A DNA stretch of 52,952 bases, the filler included, from Sphacelaria rigidula (Eukaryota): the NCBI GenBank assembly GCA_964200075.2. It is 4 parts of 4 records of this genome, joined end to end, with 100 filler letters (N's around TTAATTAATTAA, not from the genome) between each part and the next. Parts side by side here need not be neighbours in the genome. Positions count along the whole stretch, not along the records: positions 13,265 to 26,428 come from CAXNAA020003105.1; 3 more parts are not named here. The stretch is one strand, 5' to 3'. Both the position numbers and the translations under genes were made by a program. This document shows positions 13,165 to 39,790 of this stretch, one piece after another (the first letter of the stretch is position 1; every line of letters begins with the position of its first letter). The notes under the pieces are model-generated. The model was not told where the DNA came from and made no database searches. It saw only the letters and a program-made list of their open reading frames with translations.

Positions 13165-13264
13165 NNNNNNNNNNNNNNNNNNNNNNNNNNNNNNNNNNNN
13201 NNNNNNNNTTAATTAATTAANNNNNNNNNNNNNNNNNNNNNNNNNNNNNNNNNNNNNNNNNNNN
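13165..13264. other. Artificial contig-joining linker (N44-TTAATTAATTAA-N44)
   Basis: 100-nt N run with a central TTAATTAATTAA (stops in all six frames). An identical linker recurs twice more. Confidence 0.98.
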
Positions 13265-13592
13265 CTTGGAAGCCTGCAACTCATCAGCTTCAGCCCCAAC
13301 AAACTCAGCGGCGAGATCCCATCGTGGCTCCGACAGTTCGGGAACTTCCGAGAGCTTCACCTTGGCGTAAACCAGCTCATCGGCGAGATCTTACCGTCGC
13401 TCGGACAGCTTGGGAGTCTGCGAAACTCTACCTATTCTCCAACAAGCTTAGACGAGATCCAATCGTCGCTTGGACAGCTTGGCAGTCTGCAAGAGCTGTC
13501 CCTCTTCTCCAATAAGCTCAGCGGCGGGGTCCCATCGTCGCTCGGACAACTCAAGAGTCTGCAAAAGCGCGGCGATGCAGCGCTCCACTCAG
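13265..13592 (+). pseudogene. Degenerate intronless LRR-coding fragment (~4 plant-specific-type 24-aa LRRs)
   Basis: Reads LGSLQLISFSPNKLSGEIPSWLRQFGNFRELHLGVNQLIGEILPSLGQLGSLR, then frameshifts, and ends ...LSGGVPSSLGQLKSLQK. Confidence 0.8.
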
Positions 13593-14145
13593 GTACGTCG
13601 TCTGCTCGAGCCATCAAGGTCTCTTATGGCAATTGCCTTGCTCCGTCATAAAACGATGCATTGCGAGGAAGCGCGCAACGACCCCACCGAACACCTCACA
13701 AGTGCACAGTTCGTCAGCCTCGAGGAGTATTGACGCAGACCCACGTGGGTTGGCAGTCTTAGCGGGCGCTGCGCACGTGTGAGGTGTTTGATGAGACCGT
13801 GGCGCGCTTCCTCGCAGCGCACCATCCTATAGTGGAGCAAGGCAAGTATCATCAGAGGTTTTGACGGGTTGGGCACACGATGAACCCAGGTGGGGCGCTG
13901 CATCGCCGTGCTTCTGCAAACTCTCGAGCTGTCCGAGCGCCGATGGGATCTTGCCGCCAAGCTTGTCGGAGACAACAGAAAGCTCTCGCGGATCTCAAGC
14001 TGCCCAAGCGCCGATGGGGCCTCGCCGCTGAGCTTGTTTACACAGAGGTGTAGCTCTCTTGGGATCCCAAGCTGTCTGGGTGACGAAAAGAACTCTCCGC
14101 CCGGCTTATTGGAGCCGAAGTTGGCGAGTTGCAGTCTCCCAAGCA
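13265..14145. repeat. Large imperfect palindrome at the start of the LRR array, centred near 13739-13750
   Basis: 13560-13710 is a diverged reverse complement of 13770-13920 (e.g. ACACCTCACAAGTGCACAG versus CTGCGCACGTGTGAGGTGT). There is a perfect 12-bp palindrome ACCCACGTGGGT at 13739-13750, and LRR tracts continue outward on both arms. Confidence 0.85.
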
Positions 14146-17100
14146 CAGCGGCGAGATCCCATCGTCACGCTCAGATACCTTGAGAACCTACAAGAGCTTC
14201 ACCTCGGCGTGAACCAGCCCAGCTTGGGAGTCTGCAACTTCTCAACTTCGGCTTCAACAAGCTGAGCAGCAAAATGTGGCAAACGTCTCGCACACCGCCA
14301 AGCTGTCTGGGCGCCGATGGAATCTCGCCGCTGAGCTGGTTCACCACGAGGTGAAGCTCTCCCAGGCTCCCAGGCTGTCTGACCGAAGATGGAATCTCGC
14401 CGCTGAGCTTGTTGGGGCCGAAGCTGGCAAGTTGCAGTCTCCCGAGGTGAGCGGCGACCGCTTGGGAGTCTGCAACTTGCCAACTTTGGCTCCAACAAGC
14501 TGAGCGGCGCAATTCCATCGTCGCTCGGATATCTTGAGAGCCCACAAAAGTTTCACCTTGGCATAAATCAGCTCAGCTTGGGGGTCTGCCACTTCTAAAC
14601 TTCGGCTCCAACAAGCTGTGCGGCAAAACGTGGCAAAGCTCTCGCACATCGCCAAGCTGTCCAGGCGACGACGAGACCTCGCCGCTGAGCTGGTTCACCC
14701 CGAGGTGAGGTTGTCGGAGGCACCCAAGCGGTCTGAGCGACGATGGGATCTCGCAGCTGAGTCTGTTGGGGCCGAATTTGGCGAGTTGCAGTTTCCCAAG
14801 TTGAGCGGCGACAGCTTGGGAGTCCGCATCTTGCCAACTTCGTATCCAACAAGCTGAGTGGCGAGATCCCATCGTCTCGCTCAAACACCTTGAGAGCACA
14901 CAGGAGCTTCACCTCGGCGTGAACCAGCGAAGCTTGTGAGTCTGCAACTTCAACCTTCGGCTCCAACGAGCAGAGCGACAAAATGCGGCAAAGCTCTCGC
15001 ACACTGCCAAGCTGTCTGGGCGCCGATGGAATATCGCCGCTGAGCTAGTTGACGCCGAGGTGGAGCTCTCCGACGCTCCCAAGCGACGATCGGATCTCGC
15101 CGCTGAGGTTGTTGGGGCCGAAGTTGGCGAGTTATAGTTTCCCAAGCTGAGCGGCGACAGCTCGAGGATCTGCAACTTGCCAACTTCGGCTGCAACAAGC
15201 TAAACGGCGAGATCCCATCGTCTCGCCCAGATACCTTGAGAACCTACAAGAGTTTCACCTCGGCGAGAACCAGCGAAGCTTGGGAGTCTGCAACTTCTCA
15301 CATACGGCTCCAACAAGCTGAGCGGCAAAATGCGGCAAAGCTTCCTCACACAGCCAAGCTGTCCAGGCGACGACGGATCCACGCCGCTGAGCTGGTTCAC
15401 CCCGAGGTGAAGTTGTCGGAGGCACCCAAGCTGTCCGAGCGACGATGGGATCTCGCAGCTGAGCGTGTTCGAACCGAAGTTGGTGAGTTGCAGTCTCCTG
15501 AACTGAGCGGCGACAGCTTGGGAGTCTGCAACTTCTGGCGATATCCCATCGTCGCTCACATATCTCGTGAGTCTAACATAGTGTCACCTCGGAATCAATC
15601 AGCTCAGCTCGGCTCTAACAAGCTGAGCGGCAAAATATGGCAAACGTCTAGCACACCGCCAAGCTGGTTAGACTACGACGGGACCTCGCCACTAAGCTGG
15701 TTCACCCCGAGGTGAGGTTGTCGGAGGCACCCAAGCTGTCTGAGCCACGGTGGGATCTCGCCGCTGAGTCTGTCGGGGCCGAAGTTAACGGGTTGCAGTC
15801 TCCCGAGCTGAGCGGCGACAGCTTGGGAGTCCGCAACTCGCCAACTTCGTATCCAACAAGCTGAGCGGCGCAATCCCATCGTCACGCTCAAACACCTCGA
15901 GAGCACACAGGAGCTTCACCTCGGCGTGAACCAGCGAAGCTTGGGAGTCTGCAACTTTAACCTTCGGCTCCAAGGAGCAGAGCGACAAAATGCGGCAAAG
16001 CTCTCGCACACTGCCAAGCTGTCTGGGCGCCGATGGGATATCGCCGCTGAGCTGGTTCACGCCGACGTGGAACTCTCCGACGTTCCTAAGCGGTCTGAGC
16101 GACGATGGAATCTCGCCGCTGAGGTCGTTGGGGCCGAAGTTGGCGAGTTGCAGTCTCCCGAGCTGAGCGGCGACAGCTCGGGGGTCTGGAACTTGCCAAC
16201 TTCGGCTTCAACAAGCTGAGCGGCGCAATTCCATCGTCTCGCCCAGATACCTTGAGAACCTACAAGAGTTTCACCTCGGCTTGATTCAGCTCGGCTCGGG
16301 AGTTTGCAACTTCTCAACTTCGGCTCCACCAAGCTAAGCGGCAAAATGTGGCAAACGTCTCGCACACCGCCGAGCTGTCCGGGCGCCGATGGGACCTTGC
16401 CGCTGAGCTGGTTGACCCCGAGGTGAAGTTGTCGGAGGCACCCATGCTGTCCGAGCGACGATGAGATCTCGCCGCTGAGCTTGTTGGAGCCGAAGTTGGC
16501 GAGTTGCAGTCTCCCAAGCGGAGCGGCGACAGCTTGGAAGTCTGCAACTTGTCAACTTTGGCTCCAACAAGCTCAGCGGCGAGATACCATCGTCTCGATA
16601 AGACACCTTGAGAGCCTACAAGAGATTCACCTCGGCAAACACCAGCTCAGCTCGGGAGTCTGCAACTCCTCACCCACGGCTCCAACAAGCAGAGTGGCAA
16701 AATGTGGCGAAGCTTTTGCAGATTCCCGAGCCGTCTGTGCGCCGATCGGACCTTACCGCTGAGCTAGTTTACGCCGAGGTGAAGCTCTTGGGGCTCCCAA
16801 GCTGTCTCAGCAACGATGGGATCTCGCCGCTGAGTTTGTTGGGGCCGAGGTTGGCGGGTTGCAGTCTCCCGAAATGGGCGGCGACAGCTCGAGAGTCTGC
16901 AACTTGTCAACTTCGGCTCCATCAAGCTCAGCGGCGAGATCCCATCGCCATTCAGATACCTTGAGAGCCCGCGAGAGTTTTACCTCGGCAAATGCCAGCT
17001 CATCTTGGGGGTCTTCATCTCCCCACCTTTGGCTCAAACAATCTAAGCGGCAAATTGTGATGAAGCTTTTGCAGACTGCCGAGCCGTCTGTGTGCCGATG

Positions 17101-20100
17101 GGATGTCGCCGCTAAGCTGGTTCACGCCGAGGTGAGGTTCTTGCAGGCTTTCAAGCTGTCTGAGCGACGATGGGAGTCTGCAACTTGTCCAATTCGGCTG
17201 CAACACGCTCAGCGGCGAGATCCTATTGTCCCTTAAACATTTTGAGAGCCTACGAGAGTTTCACCTCGGATAAAAACAGCTCAGCTTGGGAGTCTGCAAC
17301 TCCTCAACATCGCCTCCAACAAGCTGAGCGGCGAAATGTGGCTAAGCTCTTGCGGATTCCCGGGCTGTCCAGGCGACGACGGGACCTCGTCGCTGAGCTG
17401 GTGTCCACCGAGGTCAAGCTCTCGGAGGCTCCCAAGCTGTCCATGCGACGATGGGATCTCGCCGCGGAGTTTATTGAAGCCGAAGTTGGCGAGTTGTAGT
17501 TTTCCAACCTCAGCGGCGCGGCTCGGGAGTCTGCAACTGGTCAACATCGGCTCCAACAAGCTGAGCGGCAAGATCTCGCCGTGGCTCAGACACATTGAGA
17601 GGCTACACAAGTAATACCCCGGCGTAAACCAGCTCAGCTTGGGAGTCTGCAACCTGTCAACATCGGCTCAAAAAGCTCAGCGGCATGATGTTGGGGAACT
17701 TTTGCAGACTGCCGAGCTGTCTGTGCGCGGATAGGATCTCGCCGCTGAGCTGGTTGGAGCCCAAGTTGGCGAGTTGCTGTCTCCCAAGCTGAGCGGCGAC
17801 AGCTTCGGAGTCTGAAACGTGTCGAATTTGGCCCCAACAAGCTCAGCGGCTAGATACCATCGTCGCTCAGAAACCTTAAGAGCCAATGAGGCGTCACCTC
17901 GGCGTGAGCCAACTGAGCTTGGAAGTCTGCAACATCTCAACTTCGATCCAACGAGCACCGCGAAAAAACGGGGCGAACCTTTTGCAGACTGCCGAGCTGT
18001 CTGTGCGCCGATGGGATCTCGCCGCTAAGCTCGTTGGAGCCGAAGTTGGCGAGTTACAGTCTCTCAAGCTGAGCGACGACAGCTTGAGAGTATGCAACTT
18101 GTCAACTTTGGCTTCAAGCAGCTCAGCGGCGAGATACCATCGTCGCTCAGATAACTTGAGAGCCTACAAGAACTCCACCGTGGCGTAAACCAGCTCAGCT
18201 TCAGGGTCTGCAACTTCTCAACTTCGGCTCAAACAAGCCATGCTGCATAATGTGACGAAGCTCTTGCAGACTGCCGAGCGGTCCGAGCGAAGGTGGGACC
18301 TTGCCGCTGAGCTGGTTTACCCCGAGGTGAAGCTCCCCGAGGCTCCCAGGCTGTCTGAGCGGCCATGGGATCCCGCCACTGAGTTCGTTGAAGCCGAAGT
18401 TGGCGAGTTGCAGTCTCTCAAGCTGAGCGGCGACAGCTTGGGAGCCTGCAACTTGCGAAATTTGGCTGCAACAAGCTCAGCGGCGGGATACTGTCGTCTC
18501 GTTCAAAAACCTTGAAGGCCCACAAGAGTCCCACCTCGGCAAATACCAGCTCAGCTTGGGAGTCTGCAACTTCTCAACTTCGGCTCCGACAAGGTGAGCA
18601 GGAGAATGTGGCAAACCTCTCGCACACTCCCAAGCTGTCCAAGCGACGACGGGACCTCGCCGCTGAGCTGGTTTACACCGAGGTGAAGCTCTCCGATGCT
18701 ACCAAGCTGTCTGTGCGACGATGGGATCTCGCCGCTGAGTTTGTCAGAGCCGGAGTTGGCGAGTTGCAGTCTCCCAAGCTGAGCGGCGACGGCTTGAGGG
18801 TCTGCAACTTGTCAACTTTGGCTCCAACAAGCTCAGCGGCGAGATACCATCGTCGCTCAGATACCTCGAGAGCCCCCAAGAGCTTCACCTTCGCCAAAAC
18901 CAGCTCAGGTTGGGAGTATGCAACTTCTCACCATCGACTCAAACAAGCTGGACAGCAAAATTTGGCGAAGCTCTTGCAGACTGCCGAGACGTCTAGGCGA
19001 AGATGGGATCTCCACGACGGGTTTGTCGGAGCCGAAGTTGGCGAGTTGAAGTCTCCCAAGCTGAGCGGTGACAGCTTGAGGGTCTGCAACTTATCGACTT
19101 TGGCTCCAACAAACTCAGCGGCGAAGTACCATCGTCGCTTCGAAATCTCGAGAACCTAAAAGAGCTTCACCTCGGCATAAACCAGCTCAGCTTGGGAGTC
19201 TGCAACTCGCCAACTTCGGCTCAAACAAGCTAGAATGCGGAATATGACGAAGCTTTTGCAGACTGCCGAGCCGTCTGGGCGAAGATGGGATCTCGCCGCT
19301 GAGCTCGTTCACCCCGAGGTGAGACTCTCCGAGGCTCCCCAGCTGTCTGTGCGACGATGGGATCCCGCCGCTGAGTTTGTTGGAGCCGAAGTTGGCGAGT
19401 TGCAGTCTCCCAAGCTGAGCGGCGACAGCTTGGGAGCCTGCGACTTATCCAATATTTATGCAACAAGCTCAGCGGCGAGATACTATCGTCTCGTTCAGAG
19501 ACCTTGAGCGCCCACAAGAGTTCCACCTCGGCAAATACCAGCTCACCTTGGGAGTCTGCACCTCGCCAACTTCGGCTCCAACAAGCTGAGCGGAAAAAAT
19601 GTGGCAAAGCTCTTGCGGACTCCCACACTGTCCAAGCGACGACGGGACCTCGCCGGTGAGCTGGTCCAAGCCGAGGTAAAGCTCTTGGAGGCTCCCAAGC
19701 TGTCTGAGCGACGATGGGATTTCGCCGCTGAGTTTGTTGGAGCCGTAGTTGGCGAGTTGCAGTCTCCCAAGCTGAGCGGCGACAGCTTGGGAATCTGCGA
19801 CTCGTGGACATCCGCTCCAACAAGCTGAGCGGCGATATCCCATTGTCGCTCACACACCTTTGAGAGCCTACAAGGGCTTTACCCCGGCGTGAACCACCTC
19901 ACTTCGGGAGTCTGCAACTTCTCAACTTCGGCTCAAACATGCTAGGCTGCAAAATATGGGGAAGCTTTTGCATACTGCCGAGCTGTCTGGGTGGGGATGG
20001 GATCTCGCCGCTGAGCTGGTCGACGCCGAGGTCAAGCTCTCCGAAGCTCCCAAGCTGTCTGAGCGACGATGGAATCTCGCCGCTGAGTTTGTTGGAGCCG

Positions 20101-23100
20101 AAGTTGGCAAGTTGCAGTCTCCCAAACTGAGCGGCGACAGCTTGGAAGTCTGCGACTCGTTAACTTCGGCTCCAACAAGCTGAGCGGCGATATCCCATTG
20201 TCGCTCAGACACCTTGAGAGCCTACAAGGGCTTCACCCCGGCGTGAACCAGCTCAGTTTCGGAGCCTGCTACTTGTCCAATTTGAATGCAACAAGCTCAG
20301 CGGCGAGATCCCATCGTCCCGTTCAGAAACCTCGGGAGTCCGCAACTTGCCAACTTCGGCTCCAACAAGCTGAGCGGTAAAATGTCGCAGAGCTCTTGCG
20401 GACTACCAAAAGCTGTCCAAACGACGACGGGACCTCGCCGCTGAGCTGGTTTGCGAGGAGGTAAAGCTCTCCGAGGCTCCCAACTTGTCTGAGCGACGAT
20501 GGGATCTCGCAGCTCAGTTTGTTGAAGCCGAAGTTGGCGGGTTGTAGTCTACCAAGCTGAGCGGCGACAGCTTGGGAGTCTACGACTCGTCAACTTTGGC
20601 TTCAACAAGCTGAGGGGTGATATCCCATCGTCACTCCGACACCTTGAGAGCCTACAAGGGCTTCACCCCGGCGTGAACCAGCTCAGCTTGGGAGTCTGCA
20701 ACTTCTCAACTTCGGCTCCAACAAGCTGGGCTGCAGAATGTGCCAAAGCTCTTGCAGACTGCCGGGTCGTCTGGGCGGAGATGGGATCTCGCCGCTGAGC
20801 TCTTTCACCCCGGGGTAAAGCTCTTCGAAGCTCCCCAGCTGTCTGTGCAACGATGGGATCCCGCCGCTGAGTTTGTTGGAGCCGAAGTTGGCGAGTTGCA
20901 GTCTCCCAAGCTGAGCGGTAACTGCTCGGGAGCCTGCGACTTGTTCAATATTCATGCGACAAGCTTAGCGGCGAAATTCCATCGTTCCCTCCCGAAACCC
21001 CGAGAGCCCACAAGAGATTCACCTTGGCAAAAACCAGCTCAACTCGGGAGTCTGCAACTCGCCAACTTCGGCTCAAACATGCTCCCACACTGTCCAAGCG
21101 ACAACGGGACCTAGCCGTTGAGCTGGTTTGCGACGAGGTAAAGCTCTCCGAGGCTCCCAAGCTGTCTGAGCGACGATGGGATCTCGCAGCTCAGTTTGTT
21201 GAAGCCGAAGTTGGCGGGTTGTAGTCTCCCAAGCTGAGCGGCGACAGCTTGGGAGTCTACGACTCGTCAACATGGGCTCCAACAAGCTGAGGGGTGATAT
21301 CCCATTGTCACTCAGACACCTTGAGAGCCTACAAGGGCTTTACTCCGGCATGAACCAGCTCAGCTTGGGAGTCTGCAACTTCTCAACTTCGGCTCAAACA
21401 AGCTGGGCTGCAGAATGTGCCAAAGCTTTTGCAGACTGCCGAGCCGTCTGGGCGGAGATGGGATCTCGCCGCTGAGCTGGTTCACCCCGGGGTAAAGCTC
21501 TTCGAAGCTCCCCAGCTGTCTGTGCGACGATGGGATCCCGCCGCTGTGTCTGTTGGAGCCGAAGTTGGCGAGTTGCAGTCTCCCAAGCTGAGCGGCGACA
21601 GCTCGGGAGCCTGCGACTTGTTCAATATTCATGCGACAAGCTTAGCGGCGAAATTCCATCTTTCCCTTCCGAAACCCTGAGAGCCCACAAGAGTTTCACC
21701 TTGGCAAAAACCAGCTCAACTCGGGAGTCTGCACCTCGCCAACTTCGGCTCAAACATGCTCCCACACTGTCCAAGCGACAACAGGACCTCGTCGATGAGC
21801 TGGTTCACGCCGAGATAAAGCTCTCCGAAGCTCCCAAGCTGTCTGAGCGACGATGAGATCTCGCAGCTCAGTTTATTGGAGTCGAACTTGGCGGGTTGCA
21901 GTCTCCCGAGCTGAGCGGCGACAGCTTGGGAGTCTACGACTCGTCAACTTTGGCTCCAACAAGCTGAGGGGCGATATCCCATTGTCGCTCACACACCTCG
22001 AGAGCCCACAAGGGCTTCATCCTAACGTGAACCAGCTCACCTTGGGCGTCTGCAACTTCTCAACTTCGGCTTCAACGAGCTGGGCAGCAAAATGTGGCGA
22101 AGCTCTTGCGGACTCCCGAGCTGTCCAAGCGACGACGGGACCTCGCCGCTGAGCTGGTTCACGCCGAGGTGACGCTCATCGAGGCTCCCCAGCTGTCTGT
22201 GCGACGATGGGATCCCGCCGCTGAGTTTGTTGGAGCCGAAGGTGGCGAGTTGCAGTTTCCCAAGCCAAGCGGCGACAGCTTGGAAGTCTGCGACTCGTCA
22301 ACATCGGCTCCAACAAGCTGAACGGCGATATCCCTTTGTCGCTCAGACACCTTGAGAGCCTACGACGGCTTCACCCCGGCATGAACCAGCTCACCTTGGG
22401 AGTCTGCAACCTGCCAACTTCGGCTCGAACAAGCTGGGCGGCGAAATTTGGCGAAGCTCTTGTAGACTGCCAAGCTATCTGTGCGCCGATGGGATCTTGC
22501 CGCTAAGCTGGTTCAAGCCGAGGTGAAGCTCTCAGAGGCTCCCAAGCTGTCTGAGCGACGACCGGATCTCGCAGCTCAGTTTGTTGAAGCCGAGGTTGGC
22601 GAGTTGCATTCTCCCAAGCTGAGCGGCGACAGCTTGTGAGTCTGCGACTCGTCAACTCCGGCTCCAACAAGCTGAGCGGCGATATCCCATTGTCGCTCAC
22701 ACACCTCGAGAGCCTACAAGGGCTTTACCCCGGCGTGAACCAGCTCAGTTTGGGAGCCTGCGACTTATCCAATATTTATGCAGCAAGCTCAGCGGCGTGA
22801 TCCCATCGTCCCGTTCAGAAACCTCGAGAGCCCACAAGAGGTTCACCTCGACAAATACCAGCTCACCTTGGGAGTCTGCAACTCGCCAACTTCGGCTCCA
22901 ACAAGCTGAGCGGAAATGTGCCAAAGCTCTTGCGGACTCCCACACTGTCCAATCGACGACGGGACCTCGCCGCTGAGCTGGTTTACGCCGAGGTAAAGCT
23001 CTTGGAGGCTCCCAAGCTGTCTGAGCGATGATGGGATCTCGCACCTCAGTTTGTCGGAGCCGAAGTTGGCGAGTTATAGTCTCTCGAGCTGAGCGGCGAC

Positions 23101-25955
23101 AGCTTGGGAGTCTACGACTCGTCAACTTCGGCTCCAACAAGCTGAGGGGTGATATCCCATTGTCGCTCAGACACCTTGAGAGCCTACAAGGGCTTTACCC
23201 CGGCGTGAACCAGCTCAGCTTGGGAGTCTGCAACTTCTCAACTTTGGCTCAAACAAGCTGGGCGGCAAAATGTGGCGAAGCTTTTGCAGACTGCCAAGCT
23301 GTCTGTGCGCCGATGCGATCTCGCCGCTGAGCTGGTTCACGCCGAGGTGAAGCTTTCGGAGGCTCCCAAGCTGTCTGAGCGACGATGGGATCTCGCCGCT
23401 GAGTTTGTTGGAGCCGAAGGTGGCGAGTTGCAGTCTCCCAAGTTGAGCGGCGACAGCTTGGAAGTCTACGACTCAACATGGGCTCCAACAAGCTGAGGGG
23501 CGATATCCGATTGTCGCTCAGACACCTAGAAAGTTTGAAAGAGCGTCACCCCAGCTTGGGAGTCTGCAACTTCTCAACTTCGGCTCCAACAAGCTGGGCG
23601 ACAAAATTTGGCGAAGCTCTTGCAGACAGCCGAGCCGTCTGTGCGCTGATGCGATCTCGCCGCTGAGCTGATTCAAGCCGAGGTGAAGCTCTCGGAGGCT
23701 CCCAAGCTGTCTGTGCGACGATCGGTTCTCGCCGCTGAGTTTGTTGGAGCTGAAGTTGGCGGGTTGCATTCTCCCAAGCTGAGCGGCGACAGCTTGGAAG
23801 TCTGCACCTCGTCAACATGGGCTACAACAAGCTGAGCGGCGATATCCCACTGTCGCTCAGACACCTCTGAGAGTCTACAAGAGCTTCACCCCGGCGTGAA
23901 CCAGCTCAGCTCGGGAGTCTGCAACTCGCCAACTTCGGCTCCAAAAAGCTGAGCGGCAAAATGTGGCAAAGCTCTCGCGGATTTTTAAGCTATCCAAGCG
24001 ACGACAGGACCTCGCCGCTGAGCTGGTTTACACCGAGTTGAAGCTCTTGGAGGCGCCCAAGTTGTCTGAGCGACGATGGGATTTCGCCGCTAAGTTTGTT
24101 GGAGTCGAAATTGGCGAGTTGCAGAATCGCCGGCTGAGCGGCGACAGCTTGGGAGTCTGCGACTCGTCAACATCGGCTTCAACAAGGTCGGCGGCGAGCA
24201 CCCATCATCTCGCTCAGACACCTTGACAGCCCAGAAGAACTTCAGCTCGGCATGAACCAGCTCAGCGGAGGAATACCATCGTCGCTTGGACAGCATGGGA
24301 GTCTACGGAACTCTTACCTCTTCTCCACCGAGCTCGGCGGCATGATCATATCGTCGCTCAGACGGCTTGGGAGTCTGCAACTTGTCGAATTTGGGTCAAA
24401 GAAACTGAGGGGCGGTATCCCATCGTCGCTTACATACCTCGAGAGTCTGCAAGAGTTTCACCCAGGTGTGAATCAGCTCAGCTCGGGAGTCTGCAACTTC
24501 TCAACTTCGGCTTCAACAAGCTGAGCGGCAGGATGTGGCAAAGCTTTTGCAGATTGCCGAGCTGTCCGTGCGCCGATGGGACCTCGCCGCTGAGCTGGTT
24601 CACCCCGAGGTGAAGTTCTCGGGGGCTCCAAGGTTGTCCGAGCGACGATGGGATCTCGCCGCCGAGCTTGTTGAAGCCGAAGTTGGCGAGTTGCAGTCTC
24701 CCGAGCTCAGCAACGACAGCTTGGGAGCCTGCAACTTGTCAACTTTGACTCCATTAAGCTGAGCGGCGAAATCCCATCGTCGCTCAGATACCTTGAGAGC
24801 CTACGGGGCTTTCACCTCGGCAAAAACCAGCTCAGCTTGGGAGTTTGTAACTTCTCAACTTCGACTCCAACAAGCTGAGCGTCAACTTGCGGCTAGGCTC
24901 TTGCGGATTCCCAAGCTGTCCAAGCGACGACGGGACCTTGCCGCTGAGCTGGTTCACATCAACCTGATGTTCTTGACGGCTCCTAAGCTGTCTGAGCGAC
25001 AATGTGATCTCGCCGTTGAGTTTGTCGGAGCCGAAGTTGGCGAGTTGCAGAATCGCCAGCTGAGCGGCGACAGCTCGGGAGTCTGCGACCTAACATCATC
25101 GGCGCCAACAAGCTGAGCGGCGAGATCCCATCGTCTCGCTCAGACACCTCGAGAACCCACAAAGGCTCCAGCTCGGCGTAAACCAGCTCAGCGGAGAGAT
25201 ACCATCGTCGCTTGGACAGCTCGGGAGTATGCGAAACTTTACCCCTCCTTCAACAAGCTCAGCGGCGAGATCCCACCGTCTCCCCCAGATACCACGAGAG
25301 CCTACAAGAGCTTCACCCAGACGTGAGCCAGCTCAGCTTGAGAGTTTGCAACTTCTCAACTTCGGCTCCAACAAGCTGAGCGGCAAAATGTGGCAAACCT
25401 CTCGCACACCGCCAAGCTGTGTGTGCGCCGATGGAACCTCGCCGCTGAGCTGGTAGCACTGAGGTGAAGCTCTCGGACGCTCCCAAGCTGTCTGTGCGAC
25501 GATGAGATCTCTCCGCCGAGCTTATTGGAGCCGAAGTTGGCGAGTTGCAGTCTGCCGAGCTGAGCGACGACAGCTTGGGAGTCTGCAACTCGCCAACTTC
25601 GGCGCCAACAAGCTCAGCGGCGAGATACCATCGTCTCGCTCAGACATCTTGAGAACCTACAAGAGCTTCAACTCGGCGTAAACCAGCTCAGCTTGGGAGT
25701 CTGCAACTTTTAACTTCGGCTCCAACCAAGTAGAGCGGCAAAATGTGGCAATGCTACTGCAGACTACCGAGCTGTCTGAGCGCCGCTGAGCTGGTTCACC
25801 CCGAGGTGAAGCTCTCGGAGGCTCCCAAGCTGTCTGAGCGACGATGGGATTTCTCCGCCGAGCTTATTGGAGCCGAAGTTGGCGAGTTGCTGTTTCCCAA
25901 GCTGAGCGGCGACAGTTGGGAAGTCTGCAATTTGCCAACTTCGGCTCCAACAAGC
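13920..25955. repeat. Tandem array of ~34 LRR-derived inverted-repeat (hairpin) units, ~355-bp period
   Basis: The junction GTTGCAGTCTCCCAAGCTG-AGCGGCGA-CAGCTTGGGAGTCTGCAAC recurs with loops at about 14450, 14804, 15150, 15506, 15811, 16166, 16522, 16877, 17512, 17792, 18072, 18426, 18782, 19064, 19418, 19775, 20130, 20560, 20914, 21237, 21591, 21914, 22268, 22622, 23092, 23446, 23782, 24137, 24709, 25063, 25563 and 25905. Two further units have deletions near 14146 and 17170. Both strands translate into broken LxxLxLxxNxLSGEIPSSLGQL repeats. Confidence 0.95.
13920..25955 (+). ncRNA. Candidate polycistronic hairpin-RNA / miRNA-precursor cluster antisense to LRR genes
   Basis: Stems of ~120 bp with an 8-nt loop. 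Compensatory pairs are seen (G16160:C16179, T18064:A18087, A20525:T20602, T20545:A20582). Loop-proximal mismatches are mostly G:U on the + strand. There is no long ORF. Transcription itself is not shown. Confidence 0.6.
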
Positions 25956-26000
25956 TCTCGATGGTAATGTTGTATCGCAATAAATTTTGCGTTGTGTATA

Positions 26001-26175
26001 TCGATAGCCATCGCTGTAATCAATAGGTTTGGTGAGCCATCCATCGGTAGTCATTGCCGTTATCAATAGGCTTGGTGAGCCATCCATCGATAGCCATTGT
26101 CGACATCAATAGATGAAGTGAGTCATCGATCAATAGCTATTACCGCCATCAATAGATGAAGTGAGCCGTCTATCC
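26001..26175. repeat. 42-bp minisatellite, ~4 copies
   Basis: The unit GATAGCCATTG...ATCAATAG...GTGAGCCATCCATC is repeated just after the last LRR hairpin. Confidence 0.85.
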
Positions 26176-26428
26176 GTAGCATCTGCGGCCAAAAAAAAGC
26201 CTTTTCATTTTTCGGTTTTCACCAATATGGGCATTGCCGTGGGCAATCGCCAAAAACCGGTATACCGACGGTATTTTCGCCAACATCCGGTATAGCTCAC
26301 CCCCCCCCCTCAGAAAAGCTACTAATGCAGCCGCCTGATTGGCCACATCACTCCGCGTGCGCATTCTGGCGAAAACACACACGGTATACCTGTTTTGGGA
26401 AACTCAATTTGGCTTTCACCAGGTTTTC

Positions 26429-26528
26429 NNNNNNNNNNNNNNNNNNNNNNNNNNNNNNNNNNNNNNNNNNNNTTAATTAATTAANNNNNNNNNNNNNNNN
26501 NNNNNNNNNNNNNNNNNNNNNNNNNNNN
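26429..26528. other. Artificial contig-joining linker
   Basis: Same N44-TTAATTAATTAA-N44 structure. Confidence 0.98.
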
Positions 26529-28058: not shown

Positions 28059-29530
28059 ATGCAAAATCCGTGGTCGCGCACGCTAAACCGATGGGTGATA
28101 TTCACGACAGTTTCTTATCTAGCGTTATTGACGGCGATGCTGGCGTGGATAAGCACTTGGGCACTGGAATCAGCGCAGCAAGATAGTCGTGGGGCGGAGT
28201 ACGACCGCAGGGCGCAGCTAGGACTTGTGAAAGAGTCGGGCCCATTGAACCGGTACTTCGACACGCCGGGTGATTGTGTGAGCGGTACGCCGGCAGAGGT
28301 GAGACAGCAAGTACGGGGGAGTAAATCACGCACACTAGTGTGATGTTCACATACGATGATACGGTAGAATCTGGTTGCTTCGTTGTGGGACATAGCTACA
28401 ATTGAACGTAGTGGGGTAAATTGTCCCGAAACGACCATTGTCACCTTGCTTCTTGTGCACCACAGTAGTCAACGTTTGAAAGCTGGATTTACCTCCCCGT
28501 TTTTTTGTGCAGACGACTTCTCATCTTCGTTCGATAGTTCAAGGATCGGTAGACATGAGTAGGGCACGTAGATTCTTCACAATATACATTTCCCAATTTC
28601 GTGTTGTCAAGGCAATTCTGAGCAAAGGCTCATATTTCTGAGGCTGGTGTTGTTGACCGTAATTTGGTCCGATGAAAACGATTTTCTGGCTGTAGCGCGA
28701 TGAACAGTAATACTTGAAAAAACTAGCAAGAGTTGGAAGAACTATATCACAGAATTGTTCATCGGAACGATTGAGATTGGTTTGGACATGCGAAAATATC
28801 TCAGAACGAGAGCCTGGGGCTACATCGGATGCTTGCAGATCTACCGCTGACCTGTTAGCATTGGAGTGCCTAAAAATGACCATCGAAACGATTTGCACGT
28901 CTATTACACCATCTCTTCCGGGAGCCGTTCAAAATATTATTTCTGAGAACTTTGAACGCGTTTTTTTGCTCGCCATGATTCGAAGGGAGACAAAAAAAAA
29001 CACTCTTATGGCAAGAAATTGAAGTTGCACATGCATTAAGTTGGCGCGATCTAGGAGTTGTGCACCTGTACCACAGCACCCAAAGAAGGCATAGTAGAGG
29101 TGGGCACCTGTGAAAAGAAAACCGGTTAAAACCGGTTTTTGGAAACCCCAGTAGACGTCAACCGGTTACGGTTCTGAAAAAAAACGGAGTTTTTTTTGCC
29201 GGTTAAATCGGATTCCCGGTGAACCGGTTCGTGAACCGGTTCAACCGGCAAAAGGAGGTGTTATTATGACGGTTAAACCTGTTTTTAAGGTAGAAATCAC
29301 CGCAAATCGTTACGGTAGGCAGCTTACGCTGACCTTGGGACGCAGGTCATCCTGGAGATCAGCAACGGTATTTCCGTAGCCGCAATGAACAGGTACGTAT
29401 ACTTGAGGATTGAGGGGGGGGGGGGGGGGGGGGGGGGGGGAAAAAAAGTGGGACGAGCCGGGGGAAGGTTTGATGGGGTTTTAGTGGAAAAGAGACAGAA
29501 CACAATACNNNNNNNNNNGGGGGGGGGGGT

Positions 29531-29578
<48 letters not shown>

Positions 29579-32500
29579 CGTGGTGTAAAGATCATGCGAT
29601 CGACCGCGGTGAAGGTTCATGTGTCTGCTGCTGAAATTCAACTGAACAGACTTCACGATCCAGAACCAACACTATTAGCGGGCTGGATAAGTTGGAAATG
29701 TCTTGAAAACGTGGTGCATTCACGTCCTCCGTAATCTCAAGTTGAGCAATCCAAAATCGGCATTTGTGGTACAACGTAGGCTACCTGTGCGGAGGTGGTC
29801 ATGCGTCCGGCAACACGTGTATGTCCTTTTTGTTTAGTACTACCATTGGAGCTTTTTTTTCAAGGCTGAATGCTAGATGCAGCAGAGTACGCCCAGTTGG
29901 GTTATCATATATTGAAAAAATAAGGGTTCTCGGCAATGATCGCTGATACGCTTGTCAGGCTACTGAACAGCTATAATCGCCATTTCAACGGCAGTGTACT
30001 TACTGTACAGTGCCGTGCTGTGTCTACTGCACTGTGCTGTACGCGTTGCGCAGACTATGCGGTGCTGCGAACTTCCAAGTACATGTGGTGTTGCAGACCA
30101 CGAAGCAGCCACGCTGCGTCGGTTCTTCTCACAATAGGAAGTGCTTTTTTTTTGTCTGTTTGGCTCGAAGAATAGGAGCGTCAATGACGGAAATTTCTTG
30201 AGCAACGTACTCGTACTCCCAGACGTGTTTATCTTCAAGTTGCGTTGCGAGGTAGGTCGAGTACATTTTGGGAGCTTACAGGTTACTCCATCATACTAAC
30301 ACAGGGCTTGTTTCATAAATAAAAAATTGCTGTGTCTGTAAAAATCATTTTAGCAAAAAACCCAACAATCGTACGAAGCTTGTTTACCTGTTTGAGCCCA
30401 AGGACACCTGATGACAGAAACCGGTCTTTGCTGGCTCGTCGTTAGCCGAGAGACGACGAAGAAAACCAAGATCAACCACGCACAATATCGAACCGTGCAG
30501 TCCATGTAAGTCAGTACTACAGGAGCAAATCACAGTAGCAAATCACAGCACAGCACGGCACGGCATAGCAGCGCAAGGCATAATTGAGTGCAGTCCTTTT
30601 TTTTGTCCACCTGTAGCTAAGCCTGTATCCGACAGGCGTGACCCCCAGCTTGATTTCAGTACGGCAGCCACGTGTCTTGAAAAGGTACTCGTGAGTCAAG
30701 CCAGTAACAACGGTACAAAATAGCACAGTACAGTACAGTCAGAATGTATGCGGAGAGATGTGCTGCTCCCCAATCCACGTTCACATCCATTTTGTGTGCG
30801 GCAGTTGCTGGCGGCTTGTTCCCCCGATCACGCTGCTGCCAGCCGTTGCTGGAGAGGGTGCGGGGGAGTGGCTGACTCTGCCATTACTTTGCAGTGAAGC
30901 CGTTGCGCGATGGCGGTCACCCTGATCTCCCAGCTGCTTGTTTGTGTTTGTACGTGGGACGGATTGGCGTTGATTTATGCCGACGGACAAGGGTTTGTAA
31001 ACGCGGGGTATGTTAGGACTTACCCGTACTCTGAAACCAAATCATTCATCGATACCTCTCCGGAAGTATTATCCGGGTAATCAAATACCCGGAAGGACCC
31101 CGATCGTCTAAACACTACATCCCTGTCTTCCTGGCCTTTGTTACAACTACTTGATTTTCAGTGGAGGATAGGTATTGCAAAGTCATTGCCTCGGCACACT
31201 CTTTCTTCATAAATGGGAAAAGCTTCCACACCTGCAGTGACTACGACTATAAATCGTGGGGCTCGCAGTCGTCGAAATGGTCGTCACCATTTCCCGAATT
31301 CAGTCGTAGGATCCGAATCTTAATCGTCGCCATTTTTTCCGAATGTAGTCGTAGGAGTCGACTCTCGGTCATCGTCATGTTCCGAATGTAGTCGGAGGAG
31401 TCGACTCTTGGTCGTGGTCATATTTCGAATTCAGTCATACGCGTGGCGAATCACGACGGTAGGGTCGGTGAGCATTTGAAACCTCATGGGTCGTAGTCAC
31501 GTTGAAAATGATAGCACCTTGTGCCCAGGGTAACCTTTGATATATATGTTGTTGTACTGTTGCAGTGTGTCTGTCGCATCTACCAATGTATTCGATTTCG
31601 TGGGCTTTCGTGGCGGGCTGTTACATCTGTTTTTTCTTTTTCTTTTTCATCTCGCCCAGAACCACGTCGAACCCTTGGTACTGGTCGCGGTCGTCGGATA
31701 ACATGCTGTCTTTTCGCTGATGTTATGGAACTTCGCGTGTGAACGACTCGTCGCGTCTCCGCCGCAGATCTCGGAGGTGGAAGAAATGCTGAGACCCCTT
31801 TCCGAGAAATGTTTCACCTATCGGTCAGTCCGACGACTCGGAGTCCCCGTACCCCCGACAGTGGGTCAGACGTTCCAGTGGTGCTATAACAACACAGCGA
31901 CCCTGCACTGGCACGAGGCTCCCACGAGGCACGGCAGAGGACACCGGAAGGTACAGGGGAAAGAACCCTTTGACCTCGGGACCCCCGTCACAATACCTTT
32001 CGTTGCTGCCTTGACGATAGAGACCAAATTGCTGTGATCCCTCTCTCGAAATGTCCATTATTGCCTACTTGTTGATGGAGGCTAAGTTACTGCGACATAT
32101 AGCACGCCTTCTTGTTTGAAAGAGGGGATATTTTGAGCGTTGTGCAGAAGTTAGTGTATCAAGGGCCCTTGTTGCAGTCCAATGCTTGATACTCTCGCGG
32201 CAGTGTTAGGGATATACCTAGAGCATGGTTCTGGTGTCACGCTGCACATCTGTCCGTTCTGCCTGTCTCAGCTGTGTTGTGTTGTATTCGTTCAGGGAGC
32301 GTGCCATCGCTATCCACTCCCACATAGTCCGCACTGCCTCTCTATGTGTTCAACGGCAGTCAGTCTTTTTCCGTGTGTACCTTCCTTGCACGTGACAAAG
32401 GGCAGATGGCGGAGGCCGCGCAGCAACATTTTTCTTCTGTGTGCATGAGTGGTCGTTAAAAACTGATAAGATTTAGCATCGCTGCGAGATGCGCAATAAT

Positions 32501-39690: not shown

Positions 39691-39790
39691 NNNNNNNNNN
39701 NNNNNNNNNNNNNNNNNNNNNNNNNNNNNNNNNNTTAATTAATTAANNNNNNNNNNNNNNNNNNNNNNNNNNNNNNNNNNNNNNNNNNNN
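39691..39790. other. Artificial contig-joining linker
   Basis: Same N44-TTAATTAATTAA-N44 structure. Confidence 0.98.

Follow-up and report, generated by a model that had tools for sequence, protein, structure and literature searches.

Tandem clusters of hairpin RNA (hpRNA) loci have been described in Drosophila, where hp-CG4068 forms 20 tandem copies with a common transcript in D. melanogaster, and where the hp-tHMG-cluster of D. simulans comprises 13 hairpin RNAs in ~27 kb, with the target paralogues alongside (PMC10317233). According to the same report, these clusters are transcribed and diced, and their siRNAs are lost in dcr-2 mutants. An earlier note on the DNA studied here knew of no description of a tandem hairpin library; the Drosophila clusters, however, are already in print (PMC10317233). 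In plants, microRNAs aimed at NBS-LRR genes have been reported (PMC5026261). In brown algae, the LRR loci of Ectocarpus have been called hot spots of recombination, and non-coding LRRs are reported there on the non-coding strand (PMC3341825), and each LRR of the brown-algal ROCO genes lies on its own 72-nt exon, with introns in between (PMC3341825, PMC11378527). Cock et al. 2010 suggested that LRR exons of brown algae may be small-RNA targets, an idea taken up by Zambounis et al. 2012, who also discuss a 'reservoir' of LRR sequences and raise the lamprey VLR system as an analogy for LRR loci (PMC3341825). The parts of that paper cited here do not mention a tandem hairpin array for the Ectocarpus LRR loci.

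We analyzed a stretch of 52,952 nucleotides, filler included, from the alga Sphacelaria rigidula (assembly GCA_964200075.2), which we call the window. The linker listed in Table 1 occurs again, identically, at 26429-26528 and 39691-39790, so that the window consists of four unplaced scaffolds joined end to end. One of them, 13.2 kb long with N-linkers at both ends, is occupied nearly completely by an array at 13916-25957, which is made up of 34 tandem inverted-repeat units that derive from LRR modules and are non-coding. The earlier note had placed the array at 13920-25955; its existence and the ~34 copies stand, whereas the bounds have moved. Likewise, the unit length given there, ~355 bp, applies to most units (~354-357 bp), but not to all of them. 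Tandem Repeats Finder reported periods of 354-356 bp over 14140-25192, together with variant periods of 280-282, 470, 118 and 72 bp.

We mapped the modules with a 72-bp LRR module profile made from the array scaffold itself. The profile gave 158 module matches in 69 strand runs, with two antisense modules regularly followed by two to three sense modules, and the map bore out the unit layout proposed earlier (~2.5 LRR modules in antisense, an 8-nt centre and ~2.3 modules in sense). Junctions number 34 from antisense to sense and 34 from sense to antisense, and the large outer palindrome described below is the first sense-to-antisense one. Spacings between antisense-to-sense junctions (n = 33) are 350-357 bp in 18 cases, and 280-346, 430, 470, 504 or 576 bp in the other 15. 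The octamer AGCGGCGA is exact at the centre of 25 of the 34 junctions and carries one or two changes in the others. The other junction of every unit is an inversion too, and in a long transcript an arm could therefore pair with the arm on either side of it. Within the unit, the junction between modules b and c is a frame-shifting 28-nt deletion, by our reading of the sequence. One irregular unit with five consecutive sense modules includes a 128-aa LRR-like open frame (ORF 24138-24524). The 34 units stand head-to-tail, with a constant length and non-coding content, as in a tandem (satellite-type) repeat.

Table 1. Features of the array scaffold, with positions counted along the whole window.
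Feature	Position	Strand	Basis or detail
Scaffold-joining linker (44 N, TTAATTAATTAA, 44 N)	13165..13264		array scaffold begins 13265
LRR exon-like piece, four contiguous ~72-bp modules in sense	13265..13591	+	module matches 13266-13546
Outer palindrome core, arms 13486-13709 and 13769-13992, 59-nt spacer	13486..13992		224 nt, 75% complementary
First antisense-to-sense junction, ancestral-looking	14140..14173	+	sequence reading; overlapping module matches
Three-unit higher-order block, present twice	14632..16700		unit identities
Representative 355-bp unit	15990..16344	+	module matches, folding
Representative unit, first parts in order: junction B filler, partial antisense module 3'			
Representative unit, antisense module 2'	16022-16071		as matched
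Representative unit, antisense module 1'	16094-16161		
Representative unit, centre	16166-16173		
Representative unit, sense module a	16178-16240		
Representative unit, sense module b	16252-16295		cut after 44-48 nt
Representative unit, sense module c	16296-16347		
Two-unit higher-order block, spacings 354 + 323 bp, ~2.5 repeats	20387..22090		offset-2 identities 0.90-0.955
Irregular unit, five consecutive sense modules, 576-bp spacing	24149..24534	+	module map
Scaffold end: 43-bp tandem repeat (26000-26174), then very high-copy dispersed repeat	25996..26428		TRF and contig depth

The scaffold begins with an LRR exon-like piece whose 5' end is cut by the scaffold end and after which comes a donor-like CAG/GTACGT. 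Its translation (P0001, 109 aa) is open and passes the Pfam LRR_1 cut-off (34.9 bits against 20.6). Because its third module is scrambled by internal frameshifts and reads as an LRR only in another frame, the piece may be a pseudogene itself. The modules of the array are 77-80% identical to the modules of this piece, and the source of the array is this piece or a close paralogue. The most identical database protein (P0082, 55% identity) is an LRR-Roc-COR protein with LRRs of the 23-residue type. The modules had earlier been assigned to the type found in brown-algal ROCO genes, but in the array scaffold they are contiguous and do not occupy one 72-nt exon each; they abut, with gaps of 4-6 nt between profile matches that cover 68 of the 72 nt.

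The exon-like piece is also one arm of an outer palindrome of ~440 bp. Beyond the core, which includes non-LRR, intron-like sequence, the pairing extends from 13265-13415 to 13993-14143 (151 nt, 72% complementary), and the segment 13265-14150 folds into a single hairpin (-517.4 kcal/mol; z = -23, 20 shuffles). At the first antisense-to-sense junction, the start of an antisense module leads directly into a sense ...SGEIPSS, the module matches on the two strands overlap (14075-14142 on the - strand, 14140-14173 on the + strand), and 19 nt that are missing from the canonical centre are retained. At the other end of the scaffold, the summed contig depth of the dispersed repeat reaches 34,888 in run X1 and 16,367 in run X4, against ~50 and ~25 for the array; it is probably because of this repeat that the scaffold stops at 26428. 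No further copy of it was found elsewhere in the window.

Each unit had been expected to fold into a stem of ~120 bp, and all 34 did form a single hairpin, far more stable than shuffled sequences, as in the long inverted repeats of hpRNA loci. Folding energies range from -108 to -204 kcal/mol per 250 nt (mean -148, against an average of -86 for shuffles), with z-scores from -4 to -49 (12 shuffles for each of the 34 units); for one unit compared with 200 shuffles (-163.8 kcal/mol, z = -14.7), no shuffle was equally stable. An inverted-repeat search recovered nine arm pairs. In eight of them the arms are 45-118 nt long, separated by 8 nt and complementary at 78-86%; in the ninth they are 117 nt long, separated by 14 nt and complementary at 77%. 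The consensus unit is a near-perfect 120-bp hairpin in which 111 of the 120 arm positions match (92.5%; -237 kcal/mol). Present-day units have imperfect stems: their longest continuous helix has a median length of 16 bp when G-U pairs are allowed and 11 bp with Watson-Crick pairs only, and a helix of at least 19 bp is found in 11 and 3 of the 34 units, respectively.

No frame stays open across the units, as had been stated before, and no ORF of the array, measured from stop to stop, exceeds 255 aa. We consider it very improbable that the array is part of a protein-coding gene, in which the sense arms of one strand would be exons, the antisense arms introns and the product a spliced LRR protein. 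Read in the LRR frame, about 21 of the 32 antisense arms stay open over 48 codons on the - strand (our count), and donor-like and acceptor-like motifs can be read inside the modules. However, this open fraction is about what neutral decay would leave, by our rough estimate; arms on the + strand are frameshifted in about half of the units; and 2.5-module exons, if joined, would break the 24-residue register. Frame-breaking deletions and frameshifts are common to the units. Variability of the antisense (L) arms by codon position is 0.137, 0.118 and 0.146, with no consistent excess at the third position, and a trend appears in module a only (p = 0.02, 8 units). Two ORFs of the array stayed under the Pfam LRR cut-off of 20.6 bits, one matching 0 families and the other scoring 17.9 bits, and the flanking P0001 alone exceeded it. 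The array showed neither a continuous LRR frame nor a coding pattern of substitution.

We also compared the pairing of each unit's own arms with the pairing of arms taken from different units. Complementarity was the same (0.728 and 0.728, p = 0.62, 32 units); it was 0.755-0.763 against 0.751-0.757 over the inner 30-60 nt (p = 0.06-0.20, 26 units), and duplex energies were -154.6 and -153.3 kcal/mol (p = 0.14, 30 units). Own arms pair no better than arms of different units, so the arms have not evolved in compensation for each other. Between pairing partners, variability per position shows hardly any correlation (rho = 0.08, module 1' against a), and the substitution spectrum is unremarkable (transition/transversion 1.35, no CpG excess). 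The earlier note had stressed that the architecture persists across diverged copies; this is not evidence of selection, because all copies derive from one ancestral unit that already had this architecture. The copies have drifted ~15% from their consensus and are ~76% alike on average, and modules are 80-85% alike within each class.

Units have their best matches 2, 3 or 7 units away, at up to 95.5% identity, so that whole blocks of units have been duplicated, as in satellite-type repeats. In the three-unit block, the units with centres at 14804, 15150 and 15503 have their best matches in those at 15811, 16166 and 16522, with identities of 0.90, 0.89 and 0.83 at offset 3 against 0.78-0.83 for adjacent units; the youngest duplicates of the array lie in the two-unit block. 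Parsimony changes per site increase away from the hairpin centre, from 1.0 in the loop to 2.4 and 2.8 in modules 1' and a, 3.1 and 3.9 in 2' and b, and 4.05-4.4 in the outer parts (stem 2.95 against non-stem 4.05, p = 1e-5). This gradient counts against neutral debris, although part of it may come from misaligned variant units of 280-323 bp; among the eight strictly canonical units, the loop and module 1' alone stand out in conservation. Similarity among units is somewhat higher for antisense arms (L-L 0.81) than for sense arms (R-R 0.75), and antisense arms have 2.68 changes per site against 3.23 in sense arms (p = 0.07). A constraint on guide strands would predict more uniform, exon-matching antisense arms, and this too counts against a neutral reading.

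With the Drosophila hpRNA clusters, as published, the array shares head-to-tail hairpin units, an inverted duplication of a protein-coding gene, adjoining copies of the parent gene and a copy number that shifts by tandem duplication. It differs in lineage and target family, and, unlike those near-identical, young and diced clusters, its units are ~76% alike and have eroded stems. Plant microRNAs directed at NBS-LRR genes mostly target the nucleotide-binding domain, not the LRR repeats. Plant MIRNA genes, as Allen et al. are said to have reported in 2004, are born by inverted duplication of their targets. The array is like them in that part of a target gene, duplicated in inverted orientation, forms a foldback that is complementary to the parent family over a long stretch, and like the NBS-LRR-directed microRNAs in that the target class is immune-receptor-like; plant MIRNA loci are single short foldbacks with one precise miRNA/miRNA* pair, whereas the array has 120-bp stems in 34 tandem copies. 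Satellite and macrosatellite DNA is characterized by a constant unit length, duplications of higher-order blocks, divergence without coding constraint and internal dyad symmetry. The array resembles it in its constant unit, block duplications, non-coding divergence and internal inverted repeats; unlike satellites, it has only 34 copies at one locus and at single-copy depth, and its protein-coding origin can be traced, with the parent alongside. In lampreys and hagfish, VLR cassettes are diverse LRR modules that are copied somatically into the gene. Here, too, incomplete LRR modules of either orientation lie beside an LRR gene, but the cassettes of the array are near-uniform and carry frame-breaking deletions, and two DNA data sets contain only the germline arrangement. 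Finally, as at the Ectocarpus LRR loci, reverse LRR-coding pieces are physically tied to an LRR locus, the module has 24 residues with GxIP, and a link with small RNAs has been discussed (PMC3341825); in the Ectocarpus loci described there, separate 72-nt LRR exons are scattered in introns, whereas the array has a fixed 355-bp inverted unit that was amplified 34 times.

We propose, with a probability of about 0.6, that the array is a non-coding, gene-derived palindromic tandem repeat, that is, debris of an LRR locus without a selected function of its own, its neutrality being inferred from one array in one genome. Its anatomy suggests the following history. The 3' part of the LRR exon and the start of the intron would have been duplicated in inverted orientation, giving the outer palindrome. 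In every LRR module, the sequence CAGCTTG (coding QLG) is accompanied by its reverse complement, CAAGCTG (coding NKL), so that the replication machinery could switch template strands at this 7-nt microhomology; a switch at this motif within a module may have been the second step, and the junction at 14140-14154, read directly from the sequence, still displays the corresponding arrangement. A further loss of 19 nt would have produced the canonical centre AGCGGCGA, and the 28-nt loss between b and c, together with a filler-containing second junction, the 355-bp unit with arms ~92% complementary. Unequal exchange may then have amplified the unit to 34 copies, with 2, 3 or 7 units often copied together. 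Since the amplification, the two arms have drifted independently of each other, and the ability to form hairpins is therefore inherited and eroding rather than maintained. If the region is transcribed, the hairpins and any small RNAs would be a by-product. A point against this reading is that any organism with Dicer would probably process such hairpins once they are transcribed.

It is doubtful, though conceivable, that the array is instead a selected hairpin-RNA cluster. Its + strand transcript, perhaps a read-through or an intron of the upstream LRR gene, would contain imperfect 120-bp hairpins that are cut by Dicer and act in trans, small RNAs from the antisense arms tuning LRR paralogues. 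That all 34 units fold far better than shuffles, that the array derives from and adjoins an LRR gene, and that conservation is higher in the antisense arm and in the stem close to the loop is consistent with such a cluster. The units are inverted duplications of LRR coding sequence, as the earlier note had held and as the module map and the identity with the exon show, and the arms of a + strand transcript would be complementary to the flanking exon-like piece: of 12,022 + strand 21-mers, 906 are antisense to it at no more than two mismatches (34 perfect, 223 with one mismatch and 649 with two), and the perfect matches number 34 for the antisense arms against 3 for the sense arms. The Drosophila tandem clusters (PMC10317233) and the Ectocarpus small-RNA candidates with LRR exons as predicted targets (PMC3341825, PMC3874173) offer precedents. 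Nevertheless, the Drosophila copies are far more alike, the arms here lack compensatory evolution, the stems have fallen from -237 to a mean of -148 kcal/mol, and few units keep a helix of at least 19 bp. The early Ectocarpus candidates were mostly dropped as microRNAs, only six families of Cock et al. being kept (PMC4513859). The criteria quoted in that paper for a microRNA include a precise miRNA/miRNA* pair, 2-nt overhangs and homogeneous 5' ends. In a fuller version, slightly more doubtful still, a single + strand transcript would run through the array, driven either by the LRR gene with which the scaffold begins or by a promoter close to the outer palindrome. The 34 diverged hairpins and the 440-bp outer hairpin, with the gene's own exon, would then be diced into a mixture of antisense small RNAs that damp many members of an expanded LRR receptor-like family at once.

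The array might also serve as a recombination reservoir, from which gene conversion or exon shuffling would draw partial modules, as donor cassettes, to diversify LRR receptors. We regard this as improbable. The 158 module variants do occur in both orientations and adjoin an LRR exon, and for the Ectocarpus LRR loci both this hypothesis and LRRs on the non-coding strand have been described (PMC3341825, PMC11378527). However, modules so alike within their classes have little diversity to offer, the deletions common to the units break the frame, variable positions follow no common LRR pattern across module classes (rho 0.01-0.35), the modules are not separate exons with splice sites, and in the two DNA data sets only the germline arrangement is seen, the few joints resembling repeat-graph joins. 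An array of foldback or MITE-like mobile elements is more improbable again: every unit is an inverted repeat and the scaffold terminates in a very high-copy repeat, but the units are strictly head-to-tail, with neither spacers nor visible target-site duplications, the depth of every unit variant is that of single-copy sequence, and no copy of the array was found in the other three scaffolds of the window. Least credible of all is an assembly artefact, which the position of the array, alone on a short unplaced scaffold with a repeat at its end, might suggest. Contigs of run X1, which may be the source sample, and of run X4, from a different study, cover 30 of 30 scaffold bins, differ from the scaffold at 6 and ~30 places, respectively, and include pieces of up to 834-903 nt that cross both junction types. 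On the array, contig depth is 31-53 in X1 and 19-28 in X4, which equals the depth of the flank contig (53 and 24.8, respectively); this is the depth of single-copy sequence and not the high copy number of a satellite. Since the array is recovered, at single-copy depth, in the short-read contigs of two studies, it is not an artefact, which the earlier note had named as a way for its reading to fail.

If the small-RNA scenario is true, the conservation of the loop-proximal stem and the antisense arm would reflect guide-strand constraint, and the locus would rank as the first cluster of tandem hairpin RNAs outside animals and, in an alga, as the first small-RNA system directed against the repeats, the recognition part, of an immune-receptor-like family. 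If expressed and diced, it would provide a concrete precursor for the old suggestion of small RNAs that target LRR exons in brown algae, and would extend clusters of the Drosophila type, known there from testis conflicts, to a distant lineage and an immune-receptor-like family. Even as debris of an LRR locus, the array is a clean natural record of how a repeat-coding gene makes palindromes and tandem arrays. The 7-nt inverted motif in the LRR module is a ready template-switch site, and the locus preserves, side by side, the parent sequence, a junction of ancestral type, the derived unit and its block amplifications. It thus bears on the question of why algal LRR loci are such active sites of recombination.

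A 72-bp LRR module profile, built from the array scaffold itself, gave 158 module matches on that scaffold, with the strands alternating very regularly (each pair of antisense modules followed by two or three in sense), and it defined 34 antisense-to-sense and 34 sense-to-antisense junctions. Of the antisense-to-sense junctions, 25 of 34 have the exact octamer AGCGGCGA at their centre and the others are one or two letters off; the centre-to-centre spacing is 350-357 bp in 18 of 33 cases. Tandem Repeats Finder reported periods of 354-356 bp across most of 14140-25192, together with local variants of 280-282, 470, 118 and 72 bp. Each of the 34 units forms a single hairpin, and does so far better than dinucleotide shuffles (-108 to -204 kcal/mol per 250 nt, compared with an average of -86 kcal/mol). 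For the unit at 16046-16293 (-163.8 kcal/mol, z = -14.7), none of 200 shuffles was as good. No frame is open throughout, and the longest stop-to-stop ORF within the array is 255 aa. The earlier note's description of tandem units that fold as hairpins, with no frame open across them, was therefore borne out, with refinement on three points. The stems are imperfect (longest uninterrupted helix, median 16 bp with G-U pairs and 11 bp without), some units have gained or lost a module, and both junctions of each unit are inversions. Given this second inversion, either neighbour could pair with each arm in a long transcript.

Two places in the array depart from this pattern. At 24138-24534, one unit contains five consecutive sense LRR modules with a 128-aa open LRR-like frame, the most extended coding-like stretch within the array, which may have come from an LRR gene by a separate insertion or by conversion. 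At 15534-15610, about 75 nt of one unit have no match to the module profile. In run X1, contigs diverge from the scaffold sequence at 15420 and 15456, pointing to a structural variant or to a related sequence at another genomic site.

Ten public sequencing runs were listed, none of them recorded as RNA; eight, from three studies, contain part of the stretch, and four (X1, X4, X6 and X7) were mapped on the array scaffold. X1, possibly the source sample, and X4, from a different study and labelled ‘algae metagenome’, each cover 30 of 30 bins of the scaffold, with differences from it at 6 and about 30 places, respectively. Short-read contigs reaching 834-903 nt in length cross both junction types, and the array has the depth of the flanking contig (31-53 versus 53 in X1; 19-28 versus 24.8 in X4). 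The array is thus neither collapsed nor inflated, and at this scale it is not an artefact of assembly. The earlier note had allowed for such an artefact; since contigs of two studies reproduce the array at flank depth, we consider this explanation barely credible, the least probable of all those weighed here.

The second scaffold (13265-26428; 13,164 bp) consists almost wholly of the array. In two runs, the final ~430 bp of this scaffold show a summed contig depth ~600 times that of the array, and the scaffold probably stops at its present end because of the dispersed repeat located there, of which we found no further copy within the window. Given the three identical linkers listed in the table, the window was put together from four unplaced scaffolds, so that features flanking a linker are not genomic neighbours.

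Coordinates of the array surroundings and of the scaffold joins
Feature	Position	Description
LRR exon-like piece	13265-13546	sense, four contiguous modules, cut by scaffold end
Outer palindrome	arms 13486-13709 / 13769-13992	224 nt, 75% complementary, 59-nt spacer
Outer palindrome extension	13265-13415 vs 13993-14143	
Scaffold end	25996-26428	43-bp tandem repeat (26000-26174), then very high-copy dispersed repeat
Linker (44 N, TTAATTAATTAA, 44 N)	13165-13264, 26429-26528, 39691-39790	three identical copies

We also surveyed the other scaffolds. On the fourth, there are stop-free frames of 968 aa (42610-45516, - strand) and 481 aa (45953-47398, - strand). Neither has a Pfam family, and none was found for the five largest ORFs on the scaffolds other than that of the array; the protein atlas neighbours of the 968-aa frame are of HEAT/TPR-like helical-repeat type, a weak, low-recognition result. 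On the third scaffold, at 29414-29577, a 10-N gap lies between long stretches of G, 27 and 59 nt in length, around which the GC skew is strongly positive (0.28 in 29001-30000). Short tandem repeats occur at 49931-50283 (periods 41 and 150 bp) and 31287-31430 (43 bp), and their sequence is unrelated to the LRR array.

The exon-like piece (P0001), which lies at the start of the array scaffold, has a frame that is open over 109 aa and matches Pfam LRR_1 over the cut-off, and is followed by a donor-like sequence (CAG, then GTACGT) at 13591/13592. Its third module reads as LRR only in another frame, so this flanking ‘exon’ may itself be decaying. The outer palindrome consists of the end of the exon plus about 120 nt of non-LRR sequence as an inverted repeat; 13265-14150 folds entire as one hairpin (-517 kcal/mol, z = -23), and the array starts directly after the palindrome. 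The antisense modules 1' and 2' of the array show identities of 0.77 and 0.79 to exon modules 1 and 2, and the sense modules a and c are nearest exon module 3 (0.80). It follows from this resemblance that the array derives from that locus or a close paralogue.

Two mutually reverse-complementary heptamers occur in each LRR module: CAGCTTG encodes QLG at the start of the module, and CAAGCTG encodes NKL mid-module. In the first junction (14140-14154), the start of an antisense module passes directly into sense ...SGEIPSS, and a template switch at the 7-nt microhomology CAGCTTG/CAAGCTG would leave such a junction. By its appearance, the canonical centre would be a first-type junction minus 19 nt, and in the sense arm a 28-nt loss would have joined module b to module c with a shift of frame. 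About 9-14 nt of filler are found in the second junction. Given that these junction, deletion and filler features are common to the units, the founding unit was presumably already non-coding. The feature is real and striking, and we can reconstruct where it came from.

In the consensus unit, the arms match at 111 of 120 positions with a predicted fold of -237 kcal/mol, compared with an average of -148 kcal/mol for the real units. Units differ from each other by 24% on average and from the consensus by about 15%; the substitution spectrum is ordinary (transition/transversion 1.35), and neither CpG excess nor CpG-driven decay was seen among the array substitutions. As the key test, we compared the pairing of each unit's own arms with pairing with the arms of other units. 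Gapped complementarity was 0.728 in both cases (p = 0.62, n = 32 units), that of the inner 30-60 nt was 0.755-0.763 for own and 0.751-0.757 for cross pairs (p = 0.06-0.20, n = 26 units), and duplexes across units were as stable as those within units (own -154.6 and cross -153.3 kcal/mol; p = 0.14, n = 30 units). Own pairing therefore equals cross pairing by three measures, with no sign of compensatory change or arm-to-arm conversion: the ability to pair is inherited and is now eroding. Nearest relatives lie at offsets of three units (14804-16522), two units (20560-21914, identity up to 95.5%) and seven units (19775-23092), the mark of units duplicated in blocks through unequal exchange.

The distribution of changes along the unit is less even. 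Parsimony changes per site climb symmetrically from the centre, from 1.0 in the loop through 2.4 in module 1' and 2.8 in a to 3.1 in 2' and 3.9 in b, reaching 4.05-4.4 in the outer parts (stem versus non-stem, p = 1e-5). This rise may be partly due to variant-length units misaligned at their outer ends; in the eight strictly canonical units, the loop and module 1' alone stand out. The antisense arms are more alike among themselves than the sense arms are (0.81 versus 0.75; p = 0.07 by parsimony) and hold 34 perfect 21-mer matches to the flanking exon compared with three in the sense arms, mainly because module b has decayed. These trends do not fit a neutral reading neatly and are expected under guide-strand constraint, but they are weak and history is equally able to explain them.

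Regarding transcription, X6-X8 are three small runs of one study that we guessed to be RNA, of which X6 and X7 were mapped. They show low-depth (2-5) patches of uncertain nature at 13685-14198, 14455-14729, 15506-15716, 16277-16370, 18556-18648, 20926-21078, 25285-25435 and 25644-25832. The scaffold-end repeat reaches no more than about 32 in these runs, compared with the ~600-fold excess expected of a DNA library. A loose end of X7 at 25369 is not on an AG acceptor and looks like a repeat-graph join. The array scaffold has no Rfam match at gathering thresholds.

The earlier note had proposed that one long transcript could be diced into small RNAs that silence or tune LRR paralogues, and had pointed to the persistence of the architecture across diverged copies. 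This persistence is explained by descent from a single unit, so its main argument for selection fails. Therefore, we place first the reading that the array is a neutrally decaying, gene-derived palindromic repeat (probability roughly 0.6), with which its sequence evolution is consistent. A selected hairpin-RNA cluster comes second, as a candidate that we regard as doubtful. As far as the sequence can tell, what that model presupposes is in place: the units fold, their source is the family presumed to be targeted, and antisense complementarity to the neighbouring exon, with at most two mismatches, is seen in 906 of 12,022 + strand 21-mers; the lesser change near the centre and in the antisense arms also points this way. 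However, the equality of own and cross pairing and the decay of the stems from the consensus energy argue against it.

The remaining readings are far less probable than either. Ectocarpus LRR loci are described, in the relevant text of PMC3341825, as recombination hot spots whose non-coding LRRs frequently lie on the non-coding strand, and that text puts forward a ‘reservoir’ hypothesis for them; that the array is a recombination reservoir seems improbable to us. The positions that vary in one module class were only weakly correlated with those of the other classes, so that no common LRR-like pattern emerged. Cryptic coding sequence is less probable again, given the lack of an open frame and of a consistent third-position excess in codon-position variability. 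Mobile elements rank slightly lower still.

The earlier note had also tied the modules to brown-algal LRR/ROCO genes. According to the passages concerned, Ectocarpus LRR genes carry each LRR on a separate 72-nt exon (PMC3341825; PMC11378527), whereas the array modules are contiguous, so in gene structure the tie does not hold. The database protein with the highest identity (P0082, 55%) combines LRR, Roc and COR but has repeats of the 23-residue type, and therefore this match is no proof of ROCO family membership. Apart from one ROCO protein, a broader protein search gave only LRR relatives of a generic plant type, found in plants and bacteria, and a close-relative search gave none at E <= 1e-8. 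Of two metagenome-contig scans with the palindrome centre, one gave no matches and the other a single contig (L001) with 66% GC and no LRR modules, which we rejected as a chance match. Ectocarpus LRR exons are stated to be predicted targets of early small-RNA candidates (PMC3341825; PMC3874173), of which just six families were retained as microRNAs in later work, as its relevant text reports (PMC4513859).

None of the papers that we searched in their main text describes a tandem array of LRR-derived hairpins from an alga. The earlier note's view that a tandem hairpin library is undescribed is contradicted by Drosophila precedents. The relevant passages of PMC10317233 describe hp-CG4068 of D. 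melanogaster, with 20 tandem copies in one common transcript and 9-14 copies in sister species, and the hp-tHMG-cluster of D. simulans, with 13 hairpin RNAs in about 27 kb and target paralogues adjoining. A target-derived tandem hairpin library is thus not new as a concept, and the array is a variant of either a gene-derived tandem repeat or a tandem hairpin-RNA cluster, both known kinds. If it is a diced hairpin-RNA cluster, its novelty would lie in the lineage, in the target family, and in how old and diverged its copies are.
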